A DNA stretch of 30,388 bases, taken from IMG/VR virus record IMGVR_UViG_3300046832_001354, positions 1 to 30,388 of that record; one strand, written 5' to 3'. The position numbers and the translations under genes were made by a program. Shown here one piece after another: positions 15,391-30,388 of this stretch. How positions within the stretch are numbered: position 1 is the stretch's first letter; every line of letters starts with the position of its first letter. The stretch comes from a virus (taxonomy: Duplodnaviria > Caudoviricetes). The notes below the pieces were generated by a model. It had not been told where the DNA came from. It saw only the letters and a program-made list of their open reading frames with translations, and searched no databases.

Positions 15391-15731
15391 TCTGATTTAG
15401 AGTTGTGTTTGATTCGTTCTGATTCAAGGAAAGCCTCGTGACCCTTTGCCAATATATACGGCACCGATCCGCGGGATACTCCAATTGCTTTTGCCAAGTC
15501 ATTGAGTGTCATTCCGAGCTCCCGGAGATCGTAGGCACGCCGGCAGAACTGCGGGGTGTATTTGTCCGGGTGGACGTACTCGGTCGACTCGATGTTGGGG
15601 TCGGGCGAACCGTCCGCTAGGAACTTCTGGCTCAGCGGGTAGGACATCAGGCCCTTGTTGATGGCCCACTGCACCAGCCTCGGGCTGTCGTGCAGCAATT
15701 TGGTCCTGTCTAGGTCGTACTTGGTTTTCAT
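15387..15731 (-). CDS. HTH DNA-binding protein, 114 aa
   Basis: TGATG coupling to the dnaB stop. GMTLNDLAKAIGVSRGSV helix-turn-helix. Confidence 0.65.
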   Translation of the reverse strand: MKTKYDLDRTKLLHDSPRLVQWAINKGLMSYPLSQKFLADGSPDPNIESTEYVHPDKYTPQFCRRAYDLRELGMTLNDLAKAIGVSRGSVPYILAKGHEAFLESERIKHNSKSE

Positions 15732-17026
15732 CAGTAGATCGGGGGCGGGTCGGTGAAGCGGCAGTACTGGCCGTCGTACCACAGAGGAACCAGGCCGCAC
15801 TCACCGTCTCGCTGTTTGGCGATGGCGATCACAGCCTCACCTTGGGCCTCATGGCGTTCACGGTTGAGCAGTAACACAAGGTCAGCGTCCCTTTCAATCT
15901 GCCCGGAGTCGGCCAGGTCGGTGAGCCGAGGTACTCGGCCTTTGTCCTTCTCGTTCTCCCGATTGAGCTGGGCCAGGGCAACCACGGCTGTCTTGGTATC
16001 AGAGGCCACGCCTTTGAGTCTGCCCGAAACTTCTGCAATCTCATACGTTTTCTTCTCTGCAGCCCTACTGCCGTGGATCTTTTGCAGATAGTCGACCAGC
16101 ACCAGCTTCACGCCCCACTTGCGTACAGCACGGCGGATTACCGCGGTGATCGTTGCGATGTTCGATACAGATGAACCGGACACAAAATGGATGGGGCTGC
16201 CTGCGATCTTGGCTGATGCACTGGACATTGCCTTCATTCCTCCCTGGTCGAGCTGGCCGGTCTTGATGTCCTGCATTGGTATGCTGCCAATAGCCGAGAC
16301 CATACGGCGCACGATGGACTCGTCGGACATCTCCAGGCTAACGAACAGGGTGGGTATACGGGAGTCGATGGCTGCTGCCTTGGCAATGGCGATGGCAATG
16401 GCTGTCTTCCCAATGCTGGGTCGGGCTGCAATGATGGCCAGCTCACCGTATTGAAACCCATCGGTCATCTGGTCGAGCCTGTGGAAGCCCGAGGTGATCC
16501 CGGAAAGCTGGCCCTGCCTTGAGAATCTTTCCTGTGTGGAGTCGATGAAACGGCTGACAACGGACTTGGACGATTGCACCTCCTCTTTAGATGCCTCAAC
16601 GGTGAGCCCTGCTTCGGCATTGGAGACGATTTGATCGACGGAGAGGGTGGAGACAGCAGACTCACGGATCAGACGGTCTCCAGCGGTTCTGAGCTGGCGT
16701 CTATGGTAGGCTTCTAGGACAGCCTGGGAGAAGGCCGGATGATTGGCCGGGCTGGGACACAGCTCGTCTGCCTTGTTCAATTCCTCAAATGGTGGGGTAA
16801 TCTGAGGAATTGAGCGCTGCCACTCTTTGACCACCGTCGTCAGGTTGACCGGCTCGGTCTTGGCGACCAGGCTTTTGGTGATCTCGTACAGGCAGCGCAA
16901 CTTGTCGTGCTGGATAGCTGCAGTCGGGATCTTGGCGAACACCTCGTGACAGACATCCGAACCACCGGAAAGACAGGCGCCGATGAGGCCGTACTCGTCG
17001 TCCTGGGCAAAGTAGGGGTCGCTCAT
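15731..17026 (-). CDS. dnaB: Replicative DNA helicase, 431 aa
   Basis: AARPSIGKT (Walker A), SLEMS, VDYLQ, LAQLNR, LADSGQIERDAD and IAKQRDG motifs. Confidence 0.95.
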   Translation of the reverse strand: MSDPYFAQDDEYGLIGACLSGGSDVCHEVFAKIPTAAIQHDKLRCLYEITKSLVAKTEPVNLTTVVKEWQRSIPQITPPFEELNKADELCPSPANHPAFSQAVLEAYHRRQLRTAGDRLIRESAVSTLSVDQIVSNAEAGLTVEASKEEVQSSKSVVSRFIDSTQERFSRQGQLSGITSGFHRLDQMTDGFQYGELAIIAARPSIGKTAIAIAIAKAAAIDSRIPTLFVSLEMSDESIVRRMVSAIGSIPMQDIKTGQLDQGGMKAMSSASAKIAGSPIHFVSGSSVSNIATITAVIRRAVRKWGVKLVLVDYLQKIHGSRAAEKKTYEIAEVSGRLKGVASDTKTAVVALAQLNRENEKDKGRVPRLTDLADSGQIERDADLVLLLNRERHEAQGEAVIAIAKQRDGECGLVPLWYDGQYCRFTDPPPIY

Positions 17027-17718
17027 TGGTAGTCGGCGATGCTGTTTGTAAATTTCCGCCCGCCGGACTTACCGGACCCATCGGGGGAAGCATTGAGCCG
17101 AGACAACCAGTTCCTCAAGGCAGCAGGCCAGGACTTCATCGGGTTCTTTCCAACCTTCCAACCGTTGGACTCGTAGTAGTTCCAGAACTTGTCGACCTCG
17201 GTGATGGGTAGGCCGATCTTAATGGCTTCAGCAGTCAGCTCTTCGAGCGTAGGCTTCTGGAAACGAGCGGTGGGCGGCTTGTCCGCCTGTATCTTCTCTG
17301 TCTTATCTTCTCTATCTTCTCTATCGGTTACCCCATGGGTTAGCCGTGGGTTAACCGGATTCGATTCTGGGTTAACCCGTGGGTTACCCATGGGTTTCTT
17401 TGGGCGCCCTCCTTTGCCTCCATTGGACCAGGCAGCAATCAGGCTGGCGTTCACCTCGTCCCACTCGTGAGCGATCAGGTGTCCATCTTCGTGCCGGCAG
17501 AATGTCTGCATCATTGCAGACCAGAACTGATCAGCATCACCGGGCCATCGGCAGACCGATGCCAGAATGGCCGGGCTCCATTCCGGGAACTTGTTTGTCT
17601 TCCGGGTCTGGCAATGAGACCAGAGTCGGATGACGTAGTTTGGGGCTGCCTCGGTGTCGAGCAGCCGCATCAGCAGGCGGGTCTTCCAGTGATCTAAGAA
17701 GTCGGGTTCGATTATCAT
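17023..17718 (-). CDS. Phage replication initiator / replisome organiser, 231 aa
   Basis: N-terminal helical domain, NGGKGGRP linker containing DNA repeats, C-terminal FQKPTLEE...FWNYYESNGW...W domain. Coupled to dnaB. Confidence 0.75.
   Translation of the reverse strand: MIIEPDFLDHWKTRLLMRLLDTEAAPNYVIRLWSHCQTRKTNKFPEWSPAILASVCRWPGDADQFWSAMMQTFCRHEDGHLIAHEWDEVNASLIAAWSNGGKGGRPKKPMGNPRVNPESNPVNPRLTHGVTDREDREDKTEKIQADKPPTARFQKPTLEELTAEAIKIGLPITEVDKFWNYYESNGWKVGKNPMKSWPAALRNWLSRLNASPDGSGKSGGRKFTNSIADYQ
17290..17400. repeat. Putative replication origin (iterons) inside the initiator gene
   Basis: TGGGTT at 17336, 17347, 17368, 17380 and 17391, mostly as CC[AG]TGGGTT, including palindromes GGGTTAACCC and ACCCATGGGT. 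Adjacent TATCTTCTC x3 tract at 17290-17321. Confidence 0.65.
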
Positions 17719-17731
17719 GGGTCAAATAAGA

Positions 17732-17852
17732 ATCCCCACCAGTCACAGGGTAGGAGATCGCAGGAAGGAGCTGCGAATGCCTGTGGTGGTGGGGATAAAA
17801 TTTGTCATGCCTTCAGTTGGTTTCGACGCTCACCTCCTACAGCTCACGTCGA
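17732..17852 (-). promoter_or_regulatory. Structured leader / attenuator upstream of the replication operon
   Basis: Long interrupted hairpin 17732-17796 (10+6+6 bp) followed by TCTTATTT on the mRNA. Second hairpin 17823-17852. A 21-codon uORF at 17743-17808. Confidence 0.6.
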
Positions 17853-17863
17853 CAGGCCGCTCC

Positions 17864-19093
17864 CTAGCTGACAGCCGGGGCGGTGTATAGCTCTTTCATC
17901 AGCACTCGGAAGGCTCGTTCCGCTGTTGCCGGCACGACTCCATTCCCGAGCAGTCTGAGTTCGTCCGTTCGATTATCACCGGAGACGCACAGCTCGGCAT
18001 AGTCCATCCCACCGGCAGCCCCATCAGCGTCTCCACCCAACGCGGGTTGAGTTTGCCGCATCCCATTGCTCTCGCCTCCGCATCCGGCAGCATCTTCGCC
18101 AGCTTCTCCCGGTTCCCGGCTCCCCCAGCTAGTCCCGTCGGGCCTCCCGTCACTCCCGATGATGCTGGTGTCGGCCATGTTTTGATCTGATTGCTCAGAC
18201 CAACCTGACGGCAGTTGTCGCTCCTCCTGTCGCTTGCATCCGGCGTCGCCCAGCTCTTCACCTGCCTGTCCAGCTTGTCGATCATGCTCCCGTCCTTCTG
18301 CTTGTGCGCTCCGGTCGATACCGTGGCTGTCTGCCACAACCCTTGGCGGCTCCCATCCGTACTGCTGCTCGCCGGGACGGCTGGGCCATGCACTGCAACG
18401 AATCCCGCCAGTTTGGATTTCGCTGCCACCTTCTTCATGTCCACGTTCTCCCCAGTGTCCTTGTGGTCCCTGGCTGCCGGCGTTGGCCATGACTTCACAA
18501 CCACCGTCGTCAGACTCTCCTGACTCCCCTTCATGCCTCTGGAGCGATCCTGAAAGCCCTGCCGCACCTCTGAAGCTACTGGAGACGGCCAGGATGAACA
18601 CCCGCTTTCGCTGGTGCGGTGCGCCGACTTCAGACGCGCTGAATATGCCCCACGTCGTTCTGTAACCCATTCCTGCCAAGTCTTCAATGACGTCGGACAG
18701 CCCCAGGCTGATATGTCCTTCGACGTTCTCAAAGAAGCAGATCCGTGGTCTGAGAAGTCGAATGCCATCTGCAATCCACGGCCAGAGGTGCCGCGGGTCT
18801 TGTTTTCCTTTACGTTGACCGGCTGCGCTGAAGGGCTGGCATGGATATCCCCCAGTGAGGATGTCCACGCGGTCACGAAATGCTTCCCAAGGGAAGGTCT
18901 TAAGATTCGGCCAGATAGGTGCTGGGTCCATGAGTCCCGCTTCCATTTTCGCAACCAGATTGCTGATGGCGAAGGCTTCGATCTCACAAAGAGCGACTGT
19001 GCGCAGATCTGGGATTGCTCGCTGGAGTCCAAGCTCAATGCCTCCGTATCCAGCGCACAGGCCAATGTGTGTAACTGACGAGGTAGAATCCAT
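17864..19093 (-). CDS. C5 cytosine DNA methyltransferase, catalytic frame (motifs I-VIII and X), 409 aa
   Basis: LCAGYGG (I), GYPCQPFS (IV), ENV (VI), PHQRKRVFI (VIII), LRLLGNGVVP (X). Confidence 0.9.
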   Translation of the reverse strand: MDSTSSVTHIGLCAGYGGIELGLQRAIPDLRTVALCEIEAFAISNLVAKMEAGLMDPAPIWPNLKTFPWEAFRDRVDILTGGYPCQPFSAAGQRKGKQDPRHLWPWIADGIRLLRPRICFFENVEGHISLGLSDVIEDLAGMGYRTTWGIFSASEVGAPHQRKRVFILAVSSSFRGAAGLSGSLQRHEGESGESDDGGCEVMANAGSQGPQGHWGERGHEEGGSEIQTGGIRCSAWPSRPGEQQYGWEPPRVVADSHGIDRSAQAEGREHDRQAGQAGEELGDAGCKRQEERQLPSGWSEQSDQNMADTSIIGSDGRPDGTSWGSREPGEAGEDAAGCGGESNGMRQTQPALGGDADGAAGGMDYAELCVSGDNRTDELRLLGNGVVPATAERAFRVLMKELYTAPAVS

Positions 19094-19098
19094 GTCAT
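17899..19098 (-). CDS. Overlapping alternative-frame methyltransferase partner (WxTP repeats plus motif IX-like), 399 aa
   Basis: Same strand, shifted frame, own ATG. Contains WPSP, WPTP, WQTA, WATP, WPTP and LNPRWVETLMGLPVGWT. Confidence 0.7.
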   Translation of the reverse strand: MTWILPRQLHTLACALDTEALSLDSSEQSQICAQSLFVRSKPSPSAIWLRKWKRDSWTQHLSGRILRPSLGKHFVTAWTSSLGDIHASPSAQPVNVKENKTRGTSGRGLQMAFDFSDHGSASLRTSKDISAWGCPTSLKTWQEWVTERRGAYSARLKSAHRTSESGCSSWPSPVASEVRQGFQDRSRGMKGSQESLTTVVVKSWPTPAARDHKDTGENVDMKKVAAKSKLAGFVAVHGPAVPASSSTDGSRQGLWQTATVSTGAHKQKDGSMIDKLDRQVKSWATPDASDRRSDNCRQVGLSNQIKTWPTPASSGVTGGPTGLAGGAGNREKLAKMLPDAEARAMGCGKLNPRWVETLMGLPVGWTMPSCASPVIIERTNSDCSGMESCRQQRNEPSEC

Positions 19099-19105
19099 GG
19101 TGTTC

Positions 19106-19768
19106 CTAGTAGCTAGGCATCAGAACATCCGCCACTTGCTGCGTGAGCTTCACGTCCTGCAGGCAGTAGTCGATAGCTGCTTGCCGGTTGGTTTTCCACA
19201 GGTTGGCGAAGTCGGCGCCGTTTCCGGTCTTCTCTCCCAGCCCTAGATGCCTGCTGATGGCTCCGAGGCTTCCGTGGGCGCGGTTGTCCCCGAGCTGCCA
19301 CACCTCGCGCAGGTCGACGATCAGGTCGTTCCAGTAGCGGCCATTTCTGATCCAATAGGGAACTGTGACGCGGTGCTTCCAGGAGCGCTTGATTAGAAAC
19401 GGCAGGTCGAATGCCTTGATGTTGAACCCAATGATGCGCGTATGGCGCTCCCATGCATCGAGCAGCTCCCACCATTGCCGCAGCATTGCGGCCTCGCCGT
19501 CAGCGTCAGACGACAGTATGGCAGGCTCGTTGCGATCTAGGAGGTAGCCTATGCACAGCACCTGACCGCTCAGTGCATCCAAGGCAGCGTTCTTGATGTA
19601 GTCAGTGACATGGTTCTCCTCGGCCTGACGGATGCGCTCGGCGATCTTGTCGGGGTCTTTGGTGTTACCGAGCTTCACGTCGGCCGGGTTAAAGGCCGGT
19701 ATGACAAGCTCGCCAAACGGCAAGGCTCCGGTCTCGATGTCGAATACAATTGTTGGATTGGCAGGCAT
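19106..19768 (-). CDS. DnaQ/PolB-type DEDD 3'-5' exonuclease, 220 aa
   Basis: ExoI FDIET, ExoII GFNIKAFDLPF, ExoIII YCLQDV. Confidence 0.85.
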   Translation of the reverse strand: MPANPTIVFDIETGALPFGELVIPAFNPADVKLGNTKDPDKIAERIRQAEENHVTDYIKNAALDALSGQVLCIGYLLDRNEPAILSSDADGEAAMLRQWWELLDAWERHTRIIGFNIKAFDLPFLIKRSWKHRVTVPYWIRNGRYWNDLIVDLREVWQLGDNRAHGSLGAISRHLGLGEKTGNGADFANLWKTNRQAAIDYCLQDVKLTQQVADVLMPSY

Positions 19769-19798
19769 TGTTCTAAAGCGATTTGAGTTGGTAGATTT

Positions 19799-19829
19799 GT
19801 GCGTTTGTCCCGATGCGCACCCCCGGTTG
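19799..19829 (-). promoter_or_regulatory. Putative H-type pseudoknot in a 5' leader (copy 2)
   Basis: mRNA CAA-CCGG-GG-GUGCG-CA-UCGG-GACAAA-CGCAC. Matches the copy at 24636-24663 with pairing-preserving changes. Confidence 0.55.
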
Positions 19830-19867
19830 CACCACGAGTCCCAGCAGCAACAGGCTGCCGGAGAGTA

Positions 19868-20269
19868 TCAGAAGCGTTTGCCGCAGTGCGGGCAGCAGTG
19901 CTTCGTTAGGAACGGAGGCTTCTCGAGCATCGGCACCTCGAGCCACTCGCAGATCTCTGCGTAGCTCTTGAGCCCAAAGCCCGATACAGCCTGCGGGTGG
20001 AGGTGCCCGCTACGGTAGAGGTCCATGGCGTCCTCCTTGGACTTGATCGCCAGGCGCTCGATGATGTTGAAGGTCCGCACGCTGAAGGGCCAGCCCCACT
20101 GGTGCAGGATTCCCTCCTGACGCTTGGCAGCCTGTATCACCTGGCTGATGCGTTGTTTCGAGAGACCCAGATGATGCCCGATAGATTGCAGGGTCTCTCC
20201 CTCGGCCCGCATCCGCACCACGTCGGGCACCAGGTGGGCCAGTTTCATGTATGACTTTCGGGTGCTCAT
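19868..20269 (-). CDS. Sigma70-region-4-like HTH + RNA polymerase alpha-CTD-like domain + CxxC, 133 aa
   Basis: TLQSIGHHLGLSKQRISQV; FSVRTFNII...GFGLKSYAEI; terminal CCPHCG. Confidence 0.7.
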   Translation of the reverse strand: MSTRKSYMKLAHLVPDVVRMRAEGETLQSIGHHLGLSKQRISQVIQAAKRQEGILHQWGWPFSVRTFNIIERLAIKSKEDAMDLYRSGHLHPQAVSGFGLKSYAEICEWLEVPMLEKPPFLTKHCCPHCGKRF

Positions 20270-25608: not shown

Positions 25609-28218
25609 TTAGGTGAGCGCGACCGATTTCCAAGATGTTCCGTTGTGAATGTACAACACGTCGGTGTTGGTGGCGCTGTTGGTGTGGAAGTACATCGGCA
25701 CGTTGGTAGGGCTGCTCGACACATTGGTCGGACTGCCCGTCGGAGCCCCGGAGCCAGCCGGGATGTAAACGAACCCGTCGATCATCGAGCTGCCGCCAAT
25801 CGGCCCGATGAAGTCGCCGCCCACCTGATTGTAGCTGGCACCCTTGATCAGCTTGCCGGTGGTTCCATCGAACAAAACGAAGTTGCCATCCGTAGCGCTG
25901 CCGGGCCCCACCACGTCGCCGGTGCCTGTGCCTGTGGCTGCGATGGTGATCGTGCCAGATCCGTTTGTGATCGTGATGTTGGTGCCCGCAATCAGCTTGG
26001 CCCGAGCCAGCGTGCTGCCGAGGCTCTTGCCGATGAGCAGGTCGCCGTCGCTGAAGACGTTGCTCTGGCCGGTACCGCCGTTGATCACACCGAGCGTGCC
26101 GCTGACTGCAGAGCCGCCCAGGGCAATCTGGGGCAAATCAACAGCCTGAATGGCAGACATCACCACGTTGGTGCCGTTGCCGCGGAGGTACTGCCCGTTG
26201 GTCTGCGAGCCGGCCAGCGCATCCATTGCGCTCTGGGCCGTGATGCTGCTGGTGCCGCCCTTGGAGATCGGGAGCACATTGGACGTGCCATTATTGAGAT
26301 CGACCGTCCCCCAGGTAGCCGCGGAGCCAGTGCTGGTCAGCACCTGGTACTGCGTGCCCACCGAGGTGAGGCCTGTGCCGCCATTGGCGATTGCCAGAGT
26401 GCCGGTCATCGTCACCGAGCCCGAGGTGGTGATCGGGCCTCCGGTGAATGACATCCCGGTGGTCCCGCCGCTCACACCCACCGACGACACGCTCGCGCCC
26501 GCAGTCATGCTGTCCAGCTTGGCCGCGTAGGTGCTGGTCATGTAACCGTTCTGCGTGCTGGTCGCCGCGTTCTGGCTGATGACCGGCGTGGTGCTGCCCG
26601 TGGCCACGCTGATGTTCGCACCGCCCGAGGCCGACACGTTGGTCACCGTGCCGGCATTGGCCGTGTAGCCCGCCGGGTTGGTGTCCGGGTAAGCCCCGAG
26701 GTTGGTGAGTGCACCCGCAGCCGTGGTCGCCCCGGTGCCGCCCTTGTTGACGGGCAGCGTGCTGGTGATCGTGCCTGCAGAGCCCAGCACGTCGATATTC
26801 CACGTGCCGGTTGCCCCGGTGCCGGTGGGCGACGGGATGTCGGTGCCGATGGCAAGGCCCAGGTTGGTCCGGGCACCGCTCGCTGTGATGGCTCCGGTGC
26901 CACCGTTGTCCAGATCCAGCGTGCCCCCCAGGGTCAGCGTGCCGCTCGAGGTAATCGGGCCGCCCGAGAAGCTCATACCAGTGGTGCCGCCGTCGGCATT
27001 GACGCTCGTCACACTGCCGGAGGCCACCGCGGCATTCAGCGTGGAACCGGCCATGGACAGGTTGGTGCCGAGCGTGATCTCGCCCAGGGCAGTGCCCGAG
27101 GCATTCGAGCCGATCAGCTTGGCCACCGCGGAGGCCGCCTGCATCTTGGCGTAGGTCACCGCGTTGTTGGCAATGGTGGCCGCGAAGGACCCTGTGCCAG
27201 TGCCTGTCACATCCCCGGTCAGCGTGATGGTCTGGTCGCCGGTGTTGCTGCCCGAGAGGTTGGACCCTGTGACAGCGCCTGACGCAGCCACCGAGGTCGG
27301 TGTGATGGCGCCCAGGGCCACGCTGATGGCCGGTGTGGTCGTCGGGTTGGTAACGGTCCCGCTGACCCCATTGGCCGTGGTGACCGAGACCGATGTGACC
27401 GTTCCTCCGTTGGACGTGTAGTTGGCCGGGTTGGACGCAGGATAGGCGCCCAGGCTTGTCAGGGCATCGGGGGCGGTGGTCGCCCCGGTTCCGCCCGAGG
27501 CAACGGCCAGGACACCGCCCAGCGTGATGGTGCCGCTGCTGGTGATGGGTCCGCCCGAGGTGGTCAGGCCTGTCGTGCCGCCCGAGACGTTGACGCTGGT
27601 CACACCGCCGCCCGTAGGTCCCGGAGGACCGGCAGGCCCGGTGGGGCCGGCAGGACCCTGGGGTCCCTGCAGACCGCCGGCACCGAGTGGTTTGGTGGCT
27701 CCGGTATCGAGCCGGGTGATCTCCAGCGTGGTGTAGATCTCGGGCTGCCCGATATTGGAGGCAATGCCAAGGCCGTCTGCATGGCCGCCGCGCTCGCAGT
27801 AGTACTCGAGCCGGTAGACGTTGTCCTTGTGCGGCGTGATGCGCAGGTTCAGGGACACTTCCATGTCCACGCCGTTGTTGATGTAGAGCGATGGGCCGTA
27901 CCCGATGACCACCGAGTTGGTCACATCGTAGATCCGCAGCCGGGTCCCACGGGTGTGATGGAACGGTGCCAGCACCTTCACCTGGTAATCGCCGGCAGCC
28001 ACCTTCCACTCATTGGACGCAAGGTCGATGATCAGGCCATTCGGATCGCTGCTGATGGTGTTGAGCGTCCGGGCTGTCCACACAGCAGTCACCGCGGTTC
28101 CGCCTGCGACGTTGTTGTCCTTCACGTCCTGCAGCACCGCGATCTTCAGGGTCAGGCTGTCGACGTCCTTCCTCAGCTTGTTGATGAGGATCGTGCTGGT
28201 CTGGCTATCGTAGCTCAT
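25609..28218 (-). CDS. Long tail fibre with a collagen segment and GTVTSV/GGTG repeats, 869 aa
   Basis: (Gly-X-Y)7-8 stretch. Repeated VTSV...GGPITSSGT and L-x-x-x-x-GGTGA units. Gly/Thr/Ser-rich. Confidence 0.8.
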   Translation of the reverse strand: MSYDSQTSTILINKLRKDVDSLTLKIAVLQDVKDNNVAGGTAVTAVWTARTLNTISSDPNGLIIDLASNEWKVAAGDYQVKVLAPFHHTRGTRLRIYDVTNSVVIGYGPSLYINNGVDMEVSLNLRITPHKDNVYRLEYYCERGGHADGLGIASNIGQPEIYTTLEITRLDTGATKPLGAGGLQGPQGPAGPTGPAGPPGPTGGGVTSVNVSGGTTGLTTSGGPITSSGTITLGGVLAVASGGTGATTAPDALTSLGAYPASNPANYTSNGGTVTSVSVTTANGVSGTVTNPTTTPAISVALGAITPTSVAASGAVTGSNLSGSNTGDQTITLTGDVTGTGTGSFAATIANNAVTYAKMQAASAVAKLIGSNASGTALGEITLGTNLSMAGSTLNAAVASGSVTSVNADGGTTGMSFSGGPITSSGTLTLGGTLDLDNGGTGAITASGARTNLGLAIGTDIPSPTGTGATGTWNIDVLGSAGTITSTLPVNKGGTGATTAAGALTNLGAYPDTNPAGYTANAGTVTNVSASGGANISVATGSTTPVISQNAATSTQNGYMTSTYAAKLDSMTAGASVSSVGVSGGTTGMSFTGGPITTSGSVTMTGTLAIANGGTGLTSVGTQYQVLTSTGSAATWGTVDLNNGTSNVLPISKGGTSSITAQSAMDALAGSQTNGQYLRGNGTNVVMSAIQAVDLPQIALGGSAVSGTLGVINGGTGQSNVFSDGDLLIGKSLGSTLARAKLIAGTNITITNGSGTITIAATGTGTGDVVGPGSATDGNFVLFDGTTGKLIKGASYNQVGGDFIGPIGGSSMIDGFVYIPAGSGAPTGSPTNVSSSPTNVPMYFHTNSATNTDVLYIHNGTSWKSVALT

Positions 28219-30388
28219 TGCTTGGCCTTACGTCGGAGGATTCGTTGGGCCTCGTCAAGGCTGCTGGCGATGCCTATTAGGCTGCCTGCGGGGCCGTAGA
28301 GGCGGAAGGAACCCTTGGTCTTGCCCGGGATGGCCCGGTAGCCGCCCTGGAAGCTGTAGGCGCCGGGCATGGCTGAGTCGGGGGATGGCATAAACCGGAA
28401 GTCCTGAGGATTGCCGTACACCGGGTTCTTCACGAACACCGTGTTGCCGACGCTGAAAGACTCGGAGCCACCAGTGACGGGCTGATCGGTGCGCTTGTCG
28501 TAGAAGTAGGAGTGCTTTTTTGGGTCCATTCCAACCGGGGTCCACGTTTCAATATCCGATGGGATCGACCTGTCTTTGATTAGCCTTCCTTCAACCGTGG
28601 CAATCGGATGCTTTGCAGCCCTGCCTTCCTTGATCGCAACCGCACCCAGTTTGGATTCCTCGCTTCCTTCTTTTACGAAGAATCTTACCGGGCCAGAAAG
28701 GCGGACATTGGTGTCGTAGCCAATCCTGTCGCCCACGTTTCCCGGGGTAGCAGGTTCGTGAATCGTTTGAACATATGTGCCCCTGTTCAGGAATGCAGGA
28801 ATGTCGATGCGGACGCCAACAGGAGATCCTTCTGGAAGCGATTCGTGTTCACGCCAGAACGGCTGCTTTGATGAAGAAAGGGCAGCTTTAGCTTTTTCCT
28901 CGGTAGGCGGGTTGGCGAAGTCAAGGTTGCGGCCCACCTCGCGTTGGATGGTGGCGGGCATGAAGCGCTGCTCTTGAGAAGCCGGCCTATAAAACCGCTC
29001 GGAGATTGAGTAGTCCTTGTTCTTGCCGGGTTTGTTTTCGACGAACCCAAAGCGCTTGTAGAACTTTTCGAGTCTCCCCTTTGATGTGGCTCCGAGCTCA
29101 TCACTCGGGTTCACCCTAATCTGCAGCCCTTTGCTGTCAGCAAACTCCGTCAGGTCCTGCATGAACGCAGTGCCAAGGCCTTTGTTCCGATTCGCTTTCT
29201 CGACTTCAATTTCAGAAGGCCTGATGTGTTCGTATGGAGTGCCTCTGCCCCGGATATCCGTCATGTTGCGAACACCAAGAGAGTTCCAATGCTCTCGAAA
29301 ACTATCGACGCTTTCGTAGCGTTTGAGTGCTCCTTGGCCTGCTTCGCCGGCGGGCATATAGCGGATATCCTCCGATGTAGCCTTGAAGCGCTGCGAGAGC
29401 GGGATGACGTTGCCTTGGGAGTCCTTGGTCACCGGGTCGGCCAGCTTGACCTGGCTTGAGTCGGCCACGTAGTAGATGCGTTCGTTTCCGGGCAGTTCGA
29501 CGATGCCGGACTTGGTCGGCTCGCGTTCTGCGCTGAAGTTGTACATCACCTCGCCAAGCGTCTTCGGGGTGGCCTGGAACACCGGAGCATTTTCAGGGAT
29601 GCGCAGGAATACCCGCTTCACCTCGGGCACTGCCTTGGTCGTTGTCATTACCTTGGCCGCCTCAACGAAGCTGCTGGCCAAGTCGGGATTGATCGGCTTG
29701 AGATCCTTGGCGTGACCGCGCAGTTCCTTGATGAACTCCGGCACGTCATCAATGGAGCCCCAGTCGAACTCGGGCAGCATCCCGTCCTCCAGCGAGCTGT
29801 AGCCCTTGGACGAGAAGTACTCCTGAACAGCCACGTCATCGTCGAACCGGCGCATGGCATCGTTGGCAACGCGCAGGCCTGCATCCAGTCGCACAGCCTC
29901 GTCACCCAAGCGCTTGGAGTAGTTCTCTGCGGCCTGCTTGTTGGTGGTGAACGAGAAGGCCTCACGCGAGATGCCCGAGGTCTCGCCACGCATCCGCTTG
30001 TCGAACACGCTGAACCCGCCTGTCGGCGTGCCGTGGTAGACAGGGCCGATGGTGTATCCGGCCGCCTTGGCAGCCTCATCGACCATCCGCTGCGCTGCCT
30101 GAGTGTCGCCCTGCTGCACCGCGGAGAGGTAGTCGGTGTCGGAGGGCATGAAGCGCAGCATAGCCTCCTTGATCGGGCCATGCTCGGTGTCCGACTGGTT
30201 GAGCCGGTCCCACACCTCGTGATGTAGGAGAGTTTGGGCAAAGTCTTTGAACGCAGCAGGAACCTTGATGCCAAGTTGAGTCAGGCGATCCTTCTGCTCC
30301 ATCAGCACCTGCTTGGTGACAGGCACTTCCTTGCCATACACCAGCTTGCCTTGACGGCTATCGAAGGTCGGGATGTCGCCGCGGCCAA
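28215..30388 (-). CDS. Large polyvalent protein (virion-delivered/ejection-type), 5'-truncated, with ART-like, GNAT and unknown modules
   Basis: Frame stays open past 30341 to the window end (...GRGDIPTFDSRQGKLVYGKE). VYHGT...FSFT (ART-PolyVal-like), DPVTKDSQGNVIPLSQRF, RNKGLGT...FYKRFGF (GNAT). Confidence 0.75.
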   Translation of the reverse strand, partial: GRGDIPTFDSRQGKLVYGKEVPVTKQVLMEQKDRLTQLGIKVPAAFKDFAQTLLHHEVWDRLNQSDTEHGPIKEAMLRFMPSDTDYLSAVQQGDTQAAQRMVDEAAKAAGYTIGPVYHGTPTGGFSVFDKRMRGETSGISREAFSFTTNKQAAENYSKRLGDEAVRLDAGLRVANDAMRRFDDDVAVQEYFSSKGYSSLEDGMLPEFDWGSIDDVPEFIKELRGHAKDLKPINPDLASSFVEAAKVMTTTKAVPEVKRVFLRIPENAPVFQATPKTLGEVMYNFSAEREPTKSGIVELPGNERIYYVADSSQVKLADPVTKDSQGNVIPLSQRFKATSEDIRYMPAGEAGQGALKRYESVDSFREHWNSLGVRNMTDIRGRGTPYEHIRPSEIEVEKANRNKGLGTAFMQDLTEFADSKGLQIRVNPSDELGATSKGRLEKFYKRFGFVENKPGKNKDYSISERFYRPASQEQRFMPATIQREVGRNLDFANPPTEEKAKAALSSSKQPFWREHESLPEGSPVGVRIDIPAFLNRGTYVQTIHEPATPGNVGDRIGYDTNVRLSGPVRFFVKEGSEESKLGAVAIKEGRAAKHPIATVEGRLIKDRSIPSDIETWTPVGMDPKKHSYFYDKRTDQPVTGGSESFSVGNTVFVKNPVYGNPQDFRFMPSPDSAMPGAYSFQGGYRAIPGKTKGSFRLYGPAGSLIGIASSLDEAQRILRRKAKQ

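Follow-up and report, generated by a model that had tools for sequence, protein, structure and literature searches.

An overprinted phage cytosine-C5 methyltransferase gene with a candidate module-bearing specificity chain in its second reading frame

Relation to described methyltransferases

The multispecific cytosine-C5 methyltransferases of Bacillus phages, that of phi3T also among them, are single chains. Tandem target-recognition domains (TRDs) are described for the SPR, H2 and phiBssHII enzymes in the accessible parts of PMC8936443 and PMC2413257, the latter giving the TL consensus (YFW)X(RK)X5P(STCA)PT(ILV)(TASV)X5-16H(PFYWL). In M.EcoHK31I (Escherichia coli HK31; YGGCCR), the alpha chain contains motifs I-VIII, motif X and a predicted TRD, the beta chain contains motif IX and is read from a different frame within the alpha gene, and both are required, according to excerpts of PMC2836561 and PMC3404938. 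M.AquI (CYCGRG) is presented in an excerpt of PMC3404938 as a two-polypeptide C5 methyltransferase, with motifs I-VIII in one chain and the distal variable region and motif IX in the other.

The locus considered here lies within a window (the whole stretch of DNA analysed) of 30,388 nucleotides, a 30.4-kb tailed-phage contig with genes for a terminase, SU10-type portal and capsid proteins and DnaB. Two overlapping open reading frames occur on its minus strand: frame A (17864-19093; 409 amino acids) and frame B (17899-19098; 399 amino acids), the latter in the +1 frame relative to A. The two ATG codons are 5 nt apart behind a common AGGA Shine-Dalgarno-like motif (19104-19107, minus strand), which is 5 nt from the ATG of B and 10 nt from that of A and overlaps the stop codon (TAG) of the exonuclease gene upstream. 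These positions agree with an earlier note on this DNA, which had described two same-strand ORFs of 409 and 399 residues overlapping for ∼1.2 kb, with a single AGGA and the same spacings, without naming the strand. AGGA or GAGGAG is found at the corresponding site in many, not all, homologues. Across the overlap the third frame contains 21 stops. When protein A was held fixed and its codons were redrawn from the usage of 13 window genes, 6.1 stops were expected in frame B and a stop-free frame arose in 1 of 5,000 draws.

The upstream neighbor is a 3'-5' exonuclease gene (19106-19768, minus; PF10108, E = 9e-13), and a replication-initiation-like gene and a DnaB helicase gene lie downstream (15731-17718, minus), in what is the early/replication module of a tailed phage. 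A scan of 18 of the longer window ORFs revealed no restriction endonuclease gene beside the methyltransferase, and no Rfam family was detected within 17000-20000. The methylase stretch is present in lake-water sequencing runs. RNA runs yielded a single contig of 151 nt, without differences from the window and at a depth of 2 (X18), along with relatives in X15; this does not constitute evidence of transcription or translation. Relatives of the methyltransferase occur in Verrucomicrobia genomes, among others, and matches to the capsid and exonuclease proteins in mixed short bins, a pattern that favors no single host. Elsewhere in the window, a protein of at least 708 residues (28215-30341, minus) gave weak ART-PolyVal (below cut-off) and GNAT matches, resembling phage polyvalent proteins. 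A 572-residue ORF (26291-28009, minus) lies in an alternative frame of the same strand inside an 869-residue DUF5907/tail-fibre-like gene (25609-28218, minus), the +2 frame of which has 0.46 stops per 100 codons; this ORF may be a by-product of repeats.

Residues 9-173 of A matched PF00145 (E = 1e-30), and C5 methyltransferase motifs I, IV (PC), VI (ENV), VIII (RxR) and X (LGNGVVP) are all present in this frame. Motif IV, GYPCQPFS (18827-18850, minus), includes the catalytic Cys85, P84-C85 being invariant in 92 sequences. Motifs VI (ENV) to VIII (QRKRVF) span 18596-18730 (minus), and motif X, RLLGNGVVP, occupies 17930-17956 (minus). An AlphaFold model of A was confident at residues 4-174 and 383-405, with pLDDT <50 at 175-382, and a Foldseek search with it placed M.HaeIII (E = 2e-11) and M.HhaI (E = 6e-11) first. 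By its motifs and fold, A is likely the catalytic, alpha-like chain of a DNA cytosine-C5 methyltransferase, for which formation of 5-methylcytosine is predicted. The earlier note had assigned motifs I-VIII and X to A, with no motif IX and a low-complexity middle. All of this stands: motif IX is absent within A, and residues 172-340 are 20% Gly and 12% hydrophobic. The middle is not all filler, a point missed in the note: residues 236-253 form a conserved island, WPSRPGEQQYGWEPPRVV (18335-18388, minus), with 11 invariant columns among 59 sequences. This island is the one part of the middle of A under amino-acid constraint, and the same DNA in frame B is a fixed spacer.

In frame B, the N-terminal region (residues 1-169; 18592-19098, minus) is written over motifs I-VIII of A. 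Exactly beneath the middle of A, all six elements proposed in the earlier note were located: five W-x-[TS]-[PA] repeats and a segment like motif IX. The repeat units are module 1 (WPSP..., 34 residues; 18490-18591, minus), module 2 (WPTP..., 33 residues; 18391-18489, minus), module 3 (WQTA..., 28 residues; 18253-18336, minus), module 4 (WATP..., 25 residues; 18178-18252, minus) and module 5 (WPTP..., 42 residues; 18052-18177, minus), the last adjoining the motif IX-like segment LNPRWVETLMGLPVGWT (18001-18051, minus). Motif IX in B was assigned by position and pattern. Segments of this type directly precede motif X in single-chain relatives, and alignment of such relatives with the single-frame C termini of three cultured phages places it immediately before X; comparison with solved methyltransferases gave no profile match. 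The only database methyltransferase match of B was to phrog_1008 (E = 3e-25), and none was found in Pfam, NCBIfam, PADLOC or PDB sequences. Two matches to RpoD (E = 0.13-0.35) were taken as chance and rejected. An ESM Atlas search with residues 1-170 returned only unnamed viral clusters, and an AlphaFold model of B alone (pTM 0.24) was too poor for a structure search. A profile of B retrieved 1,327 clusters (50% identity) at E ≤ 1e-30 and 6,250 at 1e-10, the layout being unchecked for the weaker of the latter. Its sequence suggests that B is likely a specificity (beta-like) chain.

For comparison with M.EcoHK31I, the closest known system, an E. coli gene (L217; 81 of 5,426 genomes match) was found via a published primer for that enzyme. 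It serves as a proxy for M.EcoHK31I in that it carries both published start primers. L217 encodes a 309-residue alpha chain and, in the +1 frame, a 176-residue beta chain that starts at alpha codon 104. The +1 frame has a stop at codon 93, and a NotI-family nuclease gene is adjacent. As in the window, the beta chain is in the +1 frame and carries motif IX, and alpha carries motifs I-VIII and X; the distance from IX to X is 26 codons in L217 and 37 in the window. By contrast, the M.EcoHK31I overlap is partial, with beta nested in alpha, the TRD predicted in alpha, an endonuclease gene adjacent and no WxT modules in beta, whereas the window has an end-to-end overlap in a phage orphan gene, with B starting upstream of A, candidate modules in B and repeated switches of selection. 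A profile of whole B scored the EcoHK31I-type beta chain weakly, at E = 0.015, and that of the clade motif IX did not score it above shuffles (33 of 500 shuffles reached its score). The analogy with M.EcoHK31I drawn in the earlier note thus holds for the +1 frame and for motif IX in the beta chain, and fails for the placement of the recognition part, which is in alpha in M.EcoHK31I and, as candidate modules, in the beta-like chain here. As judged from sequence, the window gene would work like M.EcoHK31I, yet it is not the same design.

With the Bacillus phage enzymes the window gene shares tandem exchangeable units between motifs VIII and IX, orphan status in a phage and a Thr anchor in each unit. 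The likeness is drawn from published descriptions. The Bacillus phage TRDs follow the TL consensus, and the window-family modules do so only partly. M.AquI resembles those relatives in which motif X lies in B (P0322, P0336, P0377, P0388, L216 and Streptomyces phage Lilbooboo); its small chain has both IX and X, unlike the window gene, in which A carries X and the two chains overprint each other. The window layout also occurs in Paenibacillus phage Bloom, where BLOOM_56 and BLOOM_57 (PHROG 363 and 1008) are both annotated coding sequences, motif IX and WxTP units being in the +1 frame and X in the main frame. The part of PMC6070908 available lists two methyltransferase rows and leaves their nesting uncommented, and the overlapping layout is not described in the accessible portion of PMC3711429. 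Full-text searches found no paper on a phage C5 methyltransferase that is overprinted and bears modules; subscription journals, REBASE notes and supplements may hold one.

Conservation and alternating selection in the two frames

Relatives were drawn from IMG/VR as the best 80 of 244 matches to A and the best 80 of 283 matches to B. In the 80 loci selected with A, the +1 frame around motif IV was open for 256-497 codons and the third frame for 20-56. After removal of duplicates and of loci truncated at the 5' end or upstream of the B stop, 68 viral loci remained, including the sequence of the window itself. Both frames are intact in 63 of these 68, and a frame-B ATG lies near the start of A in all 68, at -5 (49 loci), -8 (12), -11 (4), -2 (2) or +1 (1). 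Most homologues therefore keep both frames open, as the earlier note had proposed to verify, and B accumulates no stops. Motif IV was present in 41 of 45 bacterial-genome loci. In 38 of the 41 the +1 frame was already open upstream of motif I; it was closed in 1 and not assessable in 2. The motif IX pattern occurred in frame A in none of these 41 loci and in frame B in 19, with a variant recognized by eye in B of two alphaproteobacterial loci.

Reading of eight annotated cultured phages in three frames revealed the same layout in five (Synechococcus phage Yong-M2-251, C75C1, Bloom, ABMM1 and SOVA965), with B annotated in Bloom but not in the other four. In Lilbooboo, the modules, IX and X are all in the +1 frame. 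In the remaining two, Rita and JKSyngboy, IX and X are in frame A and a shorter, module-bearing +1 ORF is present; this ORF, unannotated in both Mycobacterium phage Rita (gene 76, L164) and Gordonia phage JKSyngboy (gene 4, L166), lies over motifs V-VIII and has two or three TP modules. The main frame of JKSyngboy shows no modules, and the short ORF may supply them in trans. Among 150 distant B representatives, four have IX and X in one chain with the N terminus kept and five have X without IX. Motif IV was found in none of 270 B homologue entries, 120 of which were length-limited.

Several loci depart from the intact layout. Five of the 68 are broken, by one-base slips in G or C runs in L043, L044, L147 and L155 and by a stop in A in L013, which implies that the gene is dispensable or switchable. 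The slips comprise G10 in place of a G9 run inside the modules (L043, L044 and L147 versus L064) and C10 in place of C9 (L155 and P0300 versus L068 and L127). The longer run shifts both frames, so that A is shortened and B reads into motif X with IX lost. The G10 form is present in three contigs, and P0080 represents eight contigs. Either phase variation or a dead allele could account for such slips. In L060 and L069, B stops early in a variant motif IX and frame A is open for ∼190 more codons (600-632 residues), the insert after the variant IX carrying a Cys-rich, endonuclease-like ORF in the +1 frame. In about twenty alphaproteobacterial genomes, Rhizobiales and related (L187-L207), the gene is of a uniform type, with one module and a complete +1 overlap; in L199 of this group, A has stops and B is still open.

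The slips among relatives raise the question of whether two compensating assembly or sequencing indels have split an ordinary gene. In one contig from lake-water run X1, a +1/-1 pair spaced by four bases also occurs at 18961-18965, well away from both switches of frame. However, the same layout recurs in dozens of independent assemblies and in five of the eight cultured phage genomes. Contigs from runs X1-X4, one of which may be the source of the window, are identical to it without gaps over 18353-18629, 18361-18629, 18505-18629, 17989-18534 and 17800-18358. Those of X1-X4 cross 18590, and one from X4 crosses 18000-17956, without differing letters or gaps. Raw-read runs X21 and X22 contributed 0 and 3 reads. 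No compensating indels, a possibility the earlier note had raised, thus occur at the switch points in lake-run contigs, and the probability of such an artefact is considered negligible.

Amino-acid divergence, a count on related viral sequences rather than a tree-corrected rate, was used to follow selection along the overlap. Values of 0.03 for A and 0.37 for B were obtained in the motif IV block and of 0.05 and 0.39 in the motif VIII block. Across 15 module types, B diverges by 0.01-0.17 and A by 0.10-0.49. The island reverts to A (0.16, against 0.29 for B), motif IX belongs to B (0.04, against 0.36 for A) and motif X again to A (0.05, against 0.51 for B), in keeping with the suggestion that selection switches frame after motif VIII and back before X. 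Purifying selection is observed to alternate between A (motifs I-VIII), B (N terminus and WxT modules), A (island), B (motif IX) and A (motif X). Each frame carries pieces that the other lacks, and both are open and conserved.

The N terminus of B is selected within the region where A is itself conserved. Diversity at those four-fold sites of A that could not give rise to a stop in B was 0.12 over A residues 2-76 (11 of 20 sites invariant) and 0.09 over 121-152, and the same measure gave 0.49 over 77-120 and 0.61 at motif X. Given this low diversity, the N terminus of B is constrained beyond avoidance of stops, with residues of about 1-78 and 123-154 under amino-acid constraint; RNA-level constraint may be a source of the same signal. 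Helices are predicted at B residues 22-35, 44-62, 68-82 and 141-161 in a low-confidence model, from which we infer that this region is a putative docking arm.

These observations bear on how the pieces could be brought together. They are collinear and in canonical order, so that two programmed frameshifts, from A (I-VIII) to B (modules and IX) and back to A (X), would give one polypeptide resembling an ordinary methyltransferase. Such a product would leave unexplained the ATG of B that all 68 loci possess, the constraint on B residues 1-78 and 123-154, the A-selected island between modules and the avoidance of A stops under the modules. Furthermore, relatives with X moved into B still retain the B N terminus, and classical slippery motifs are absent from both junctions in all 62 loci inspected. 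The double frameshift, entertained in the earlier note, is therefore disfavored and held to be very unlikely. Scanning L001 for slippery patterns gave a chance-level result, which is uninformative. The branch of that proposal in which two chains are made accords with the universal B ATG, the constrained B N terminus and the A island between modules, and very probably A and B are indeed made as two separate chains.

Alternatively, A might be active alone, with the island in place of motif IX and B a separate accessory or DNA-binding protein that happens to be overprinted. In favor of this, the island is a conserved element of A that, in relatives with one module, adjoins the pre-X segment; gene callers annotate A as a complete methyltransferase, and B has no database match to a methyltransferase except phrog_1008. 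Against this, the IX-like segment stands in line before X in the single chains of relatives, A lacks a folded small domain in the AlphaFold model, and the alpha chain of M.EcoHK31I is reported, in an excerpt of PMC2836561, to be inactive by itself. Activity of A alone is thus very unlikely.

WxT modules and their exchange

In 64 loci, the four slipped loci being excluded, 276 modules of 25-60 residues were assigned to 56 types at 60% identity across the first 20 residues and form 60 distinct arrays of 2-7 modules. Module 1 of the window is of the commonest type, with 48 instances. Each module begins W-x-T/S-(P/A/I/V), continues as a variable loop and closes with a short L-x3-V end, with D or E at +7/+8 in 36 of the 56 types. 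The DNA at module starts follows the common form TGG-SC-N-AC-N-CC. Order within arrays is nearly fixed, recurring pairs of types being reversed in 2 of 82 cases, and no type occurs twice in any array.

Whole modules differ between loci whose cores are 0-2% apart (the window versus L003 and L007, L041 versus L042 and L069 versus L077), and 27 locus pairs with cores ≥15% apart have a common module start at ≥97% identity. Contigs from the lake runs also contain joints that skip blocks of modules. With one representative taken per type, frame A under the modules has 0 stops in 2,170 codons, against 79 in the third frame. T, which would create a stop in A at 445 synonymous B sites, was seen 0 times against 93.6 expected. 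Gain, loss and exchange of modules thus proceed by multiples of three bases and introduce no stops in A, so that exchange with both frames kept open, as put forward in the earlier note, is directly seen.

The position of the modules between motifs VIII and IX, their Thr anchor and their pattern of exchange lead us to infer that they are candidate TRDs. An anchoring T or S is present in 55 of 56 types and T/S-P in 39. The core of the TL consensus, PT(ILV)(TASV), which is the part that was scored, is present in 3 of 56. The modules are short, polar and variable on the C-terminal side of the Thr, and the published recognition residues flank it on both sides. Depletion of k-mers in the window could be linked to no module.

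Given two chains, it is quite probable that the modules make the enzyme multispecific. On another reading, two chains are made but the target depends only on the module beside motif IX, or on none singly, or the array relaxes specificity to give broad cytosine methylation, with the remaining modules a recombination reserve. The poor fit to the TL consensus would agree with this, as would the absence of a predicted fold for the modules, the existence of one-module relatives (L175, L181 and the alphaproteobacterial group) and the placement of the last module alone within 10-50 residues of motif IX, the range given in the accessible part of PMC2413257. However, constraint on the modules distant from IX matches that on the last one, the first two diverging by 0.01-0.05 with a third-position diversity of 0.16-0.29. 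Silent reserves would lack such constraint, and fixed order without duplicates fits distinct functions. An enzyme of this kind, with two chains and a single or loosened specificity, is considered rather unlikely.

Proposed enzyme and wider meaning

The full explanation that we favor, with moderate confidence, is that two chains are made, that B assembles on A and that the modules serve as successive TRDs. Ribosomes would start at either ATG behind the single AGGA. The constrained N-terminal helices of B, together with motif IX, would serve for docking on A and would rebuild the small domain. The middle of A would be a disordered loop whose open frame matters only for delivery of the island and motif X. 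As in the multispecific methyltransferases of Bacillus phages, each module in turn would act as a TRD, so that the phage would methylate more than one kind of site. The module set would be altered by recombination, both at the module-start DNA (TGG-SC-N-AC-N-CC) and within common flanking modules.

The purpose is likely to be protection from host restriction, a role suggested by the orphan position of the gene in the replication module and by the loss of palindromes in the window. Six-base palindromes are nearly absent on counting both strands, with CAGCTG found 0 times against 27, ACCGGT 0 against 22 and CGATCG 0 against 21. TCCGGA, AAGCTT and GCGCGC are likewise at zero in positions 1-30388, and CTAG is low. 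This loss points to strong restriction pressure on the phage.

Same-strand overlaps of 400 codons in which both products are selected are rare outside small viruses. The alternation of the selected frame along the DNA makes this locus a clean test bed for the origin and persistence of overlapping genes. Given that gene callers usually keep one frame, many phage methyltransferases are likely to be annotated without their specificity chain.

We tentatively suggest, at somewhat less than an even chance, that a large and mostly unannotated family of phages has moved the DNA-reading small domain of a C5 methyltransferase into an overprinted frame as a separate specificity subunit with a docking arm, in which each WxT module of 25-60 residues reads a different site and 2-7 modules drawn from a pool of more than 50 types give a combinatorial anti-restriction methylome. 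On this view, as IX, X and the modules stand in either frame according to lineage, the gene would document naturally how parts of a protein pass from one frame to another. If the modules are target-recognition units, they would represent a natural library for a 5-methylcytosine recognition code and for programmable or split methyltransferases, and their exchange would explain how lake phages track the restriction systems of their hosts.
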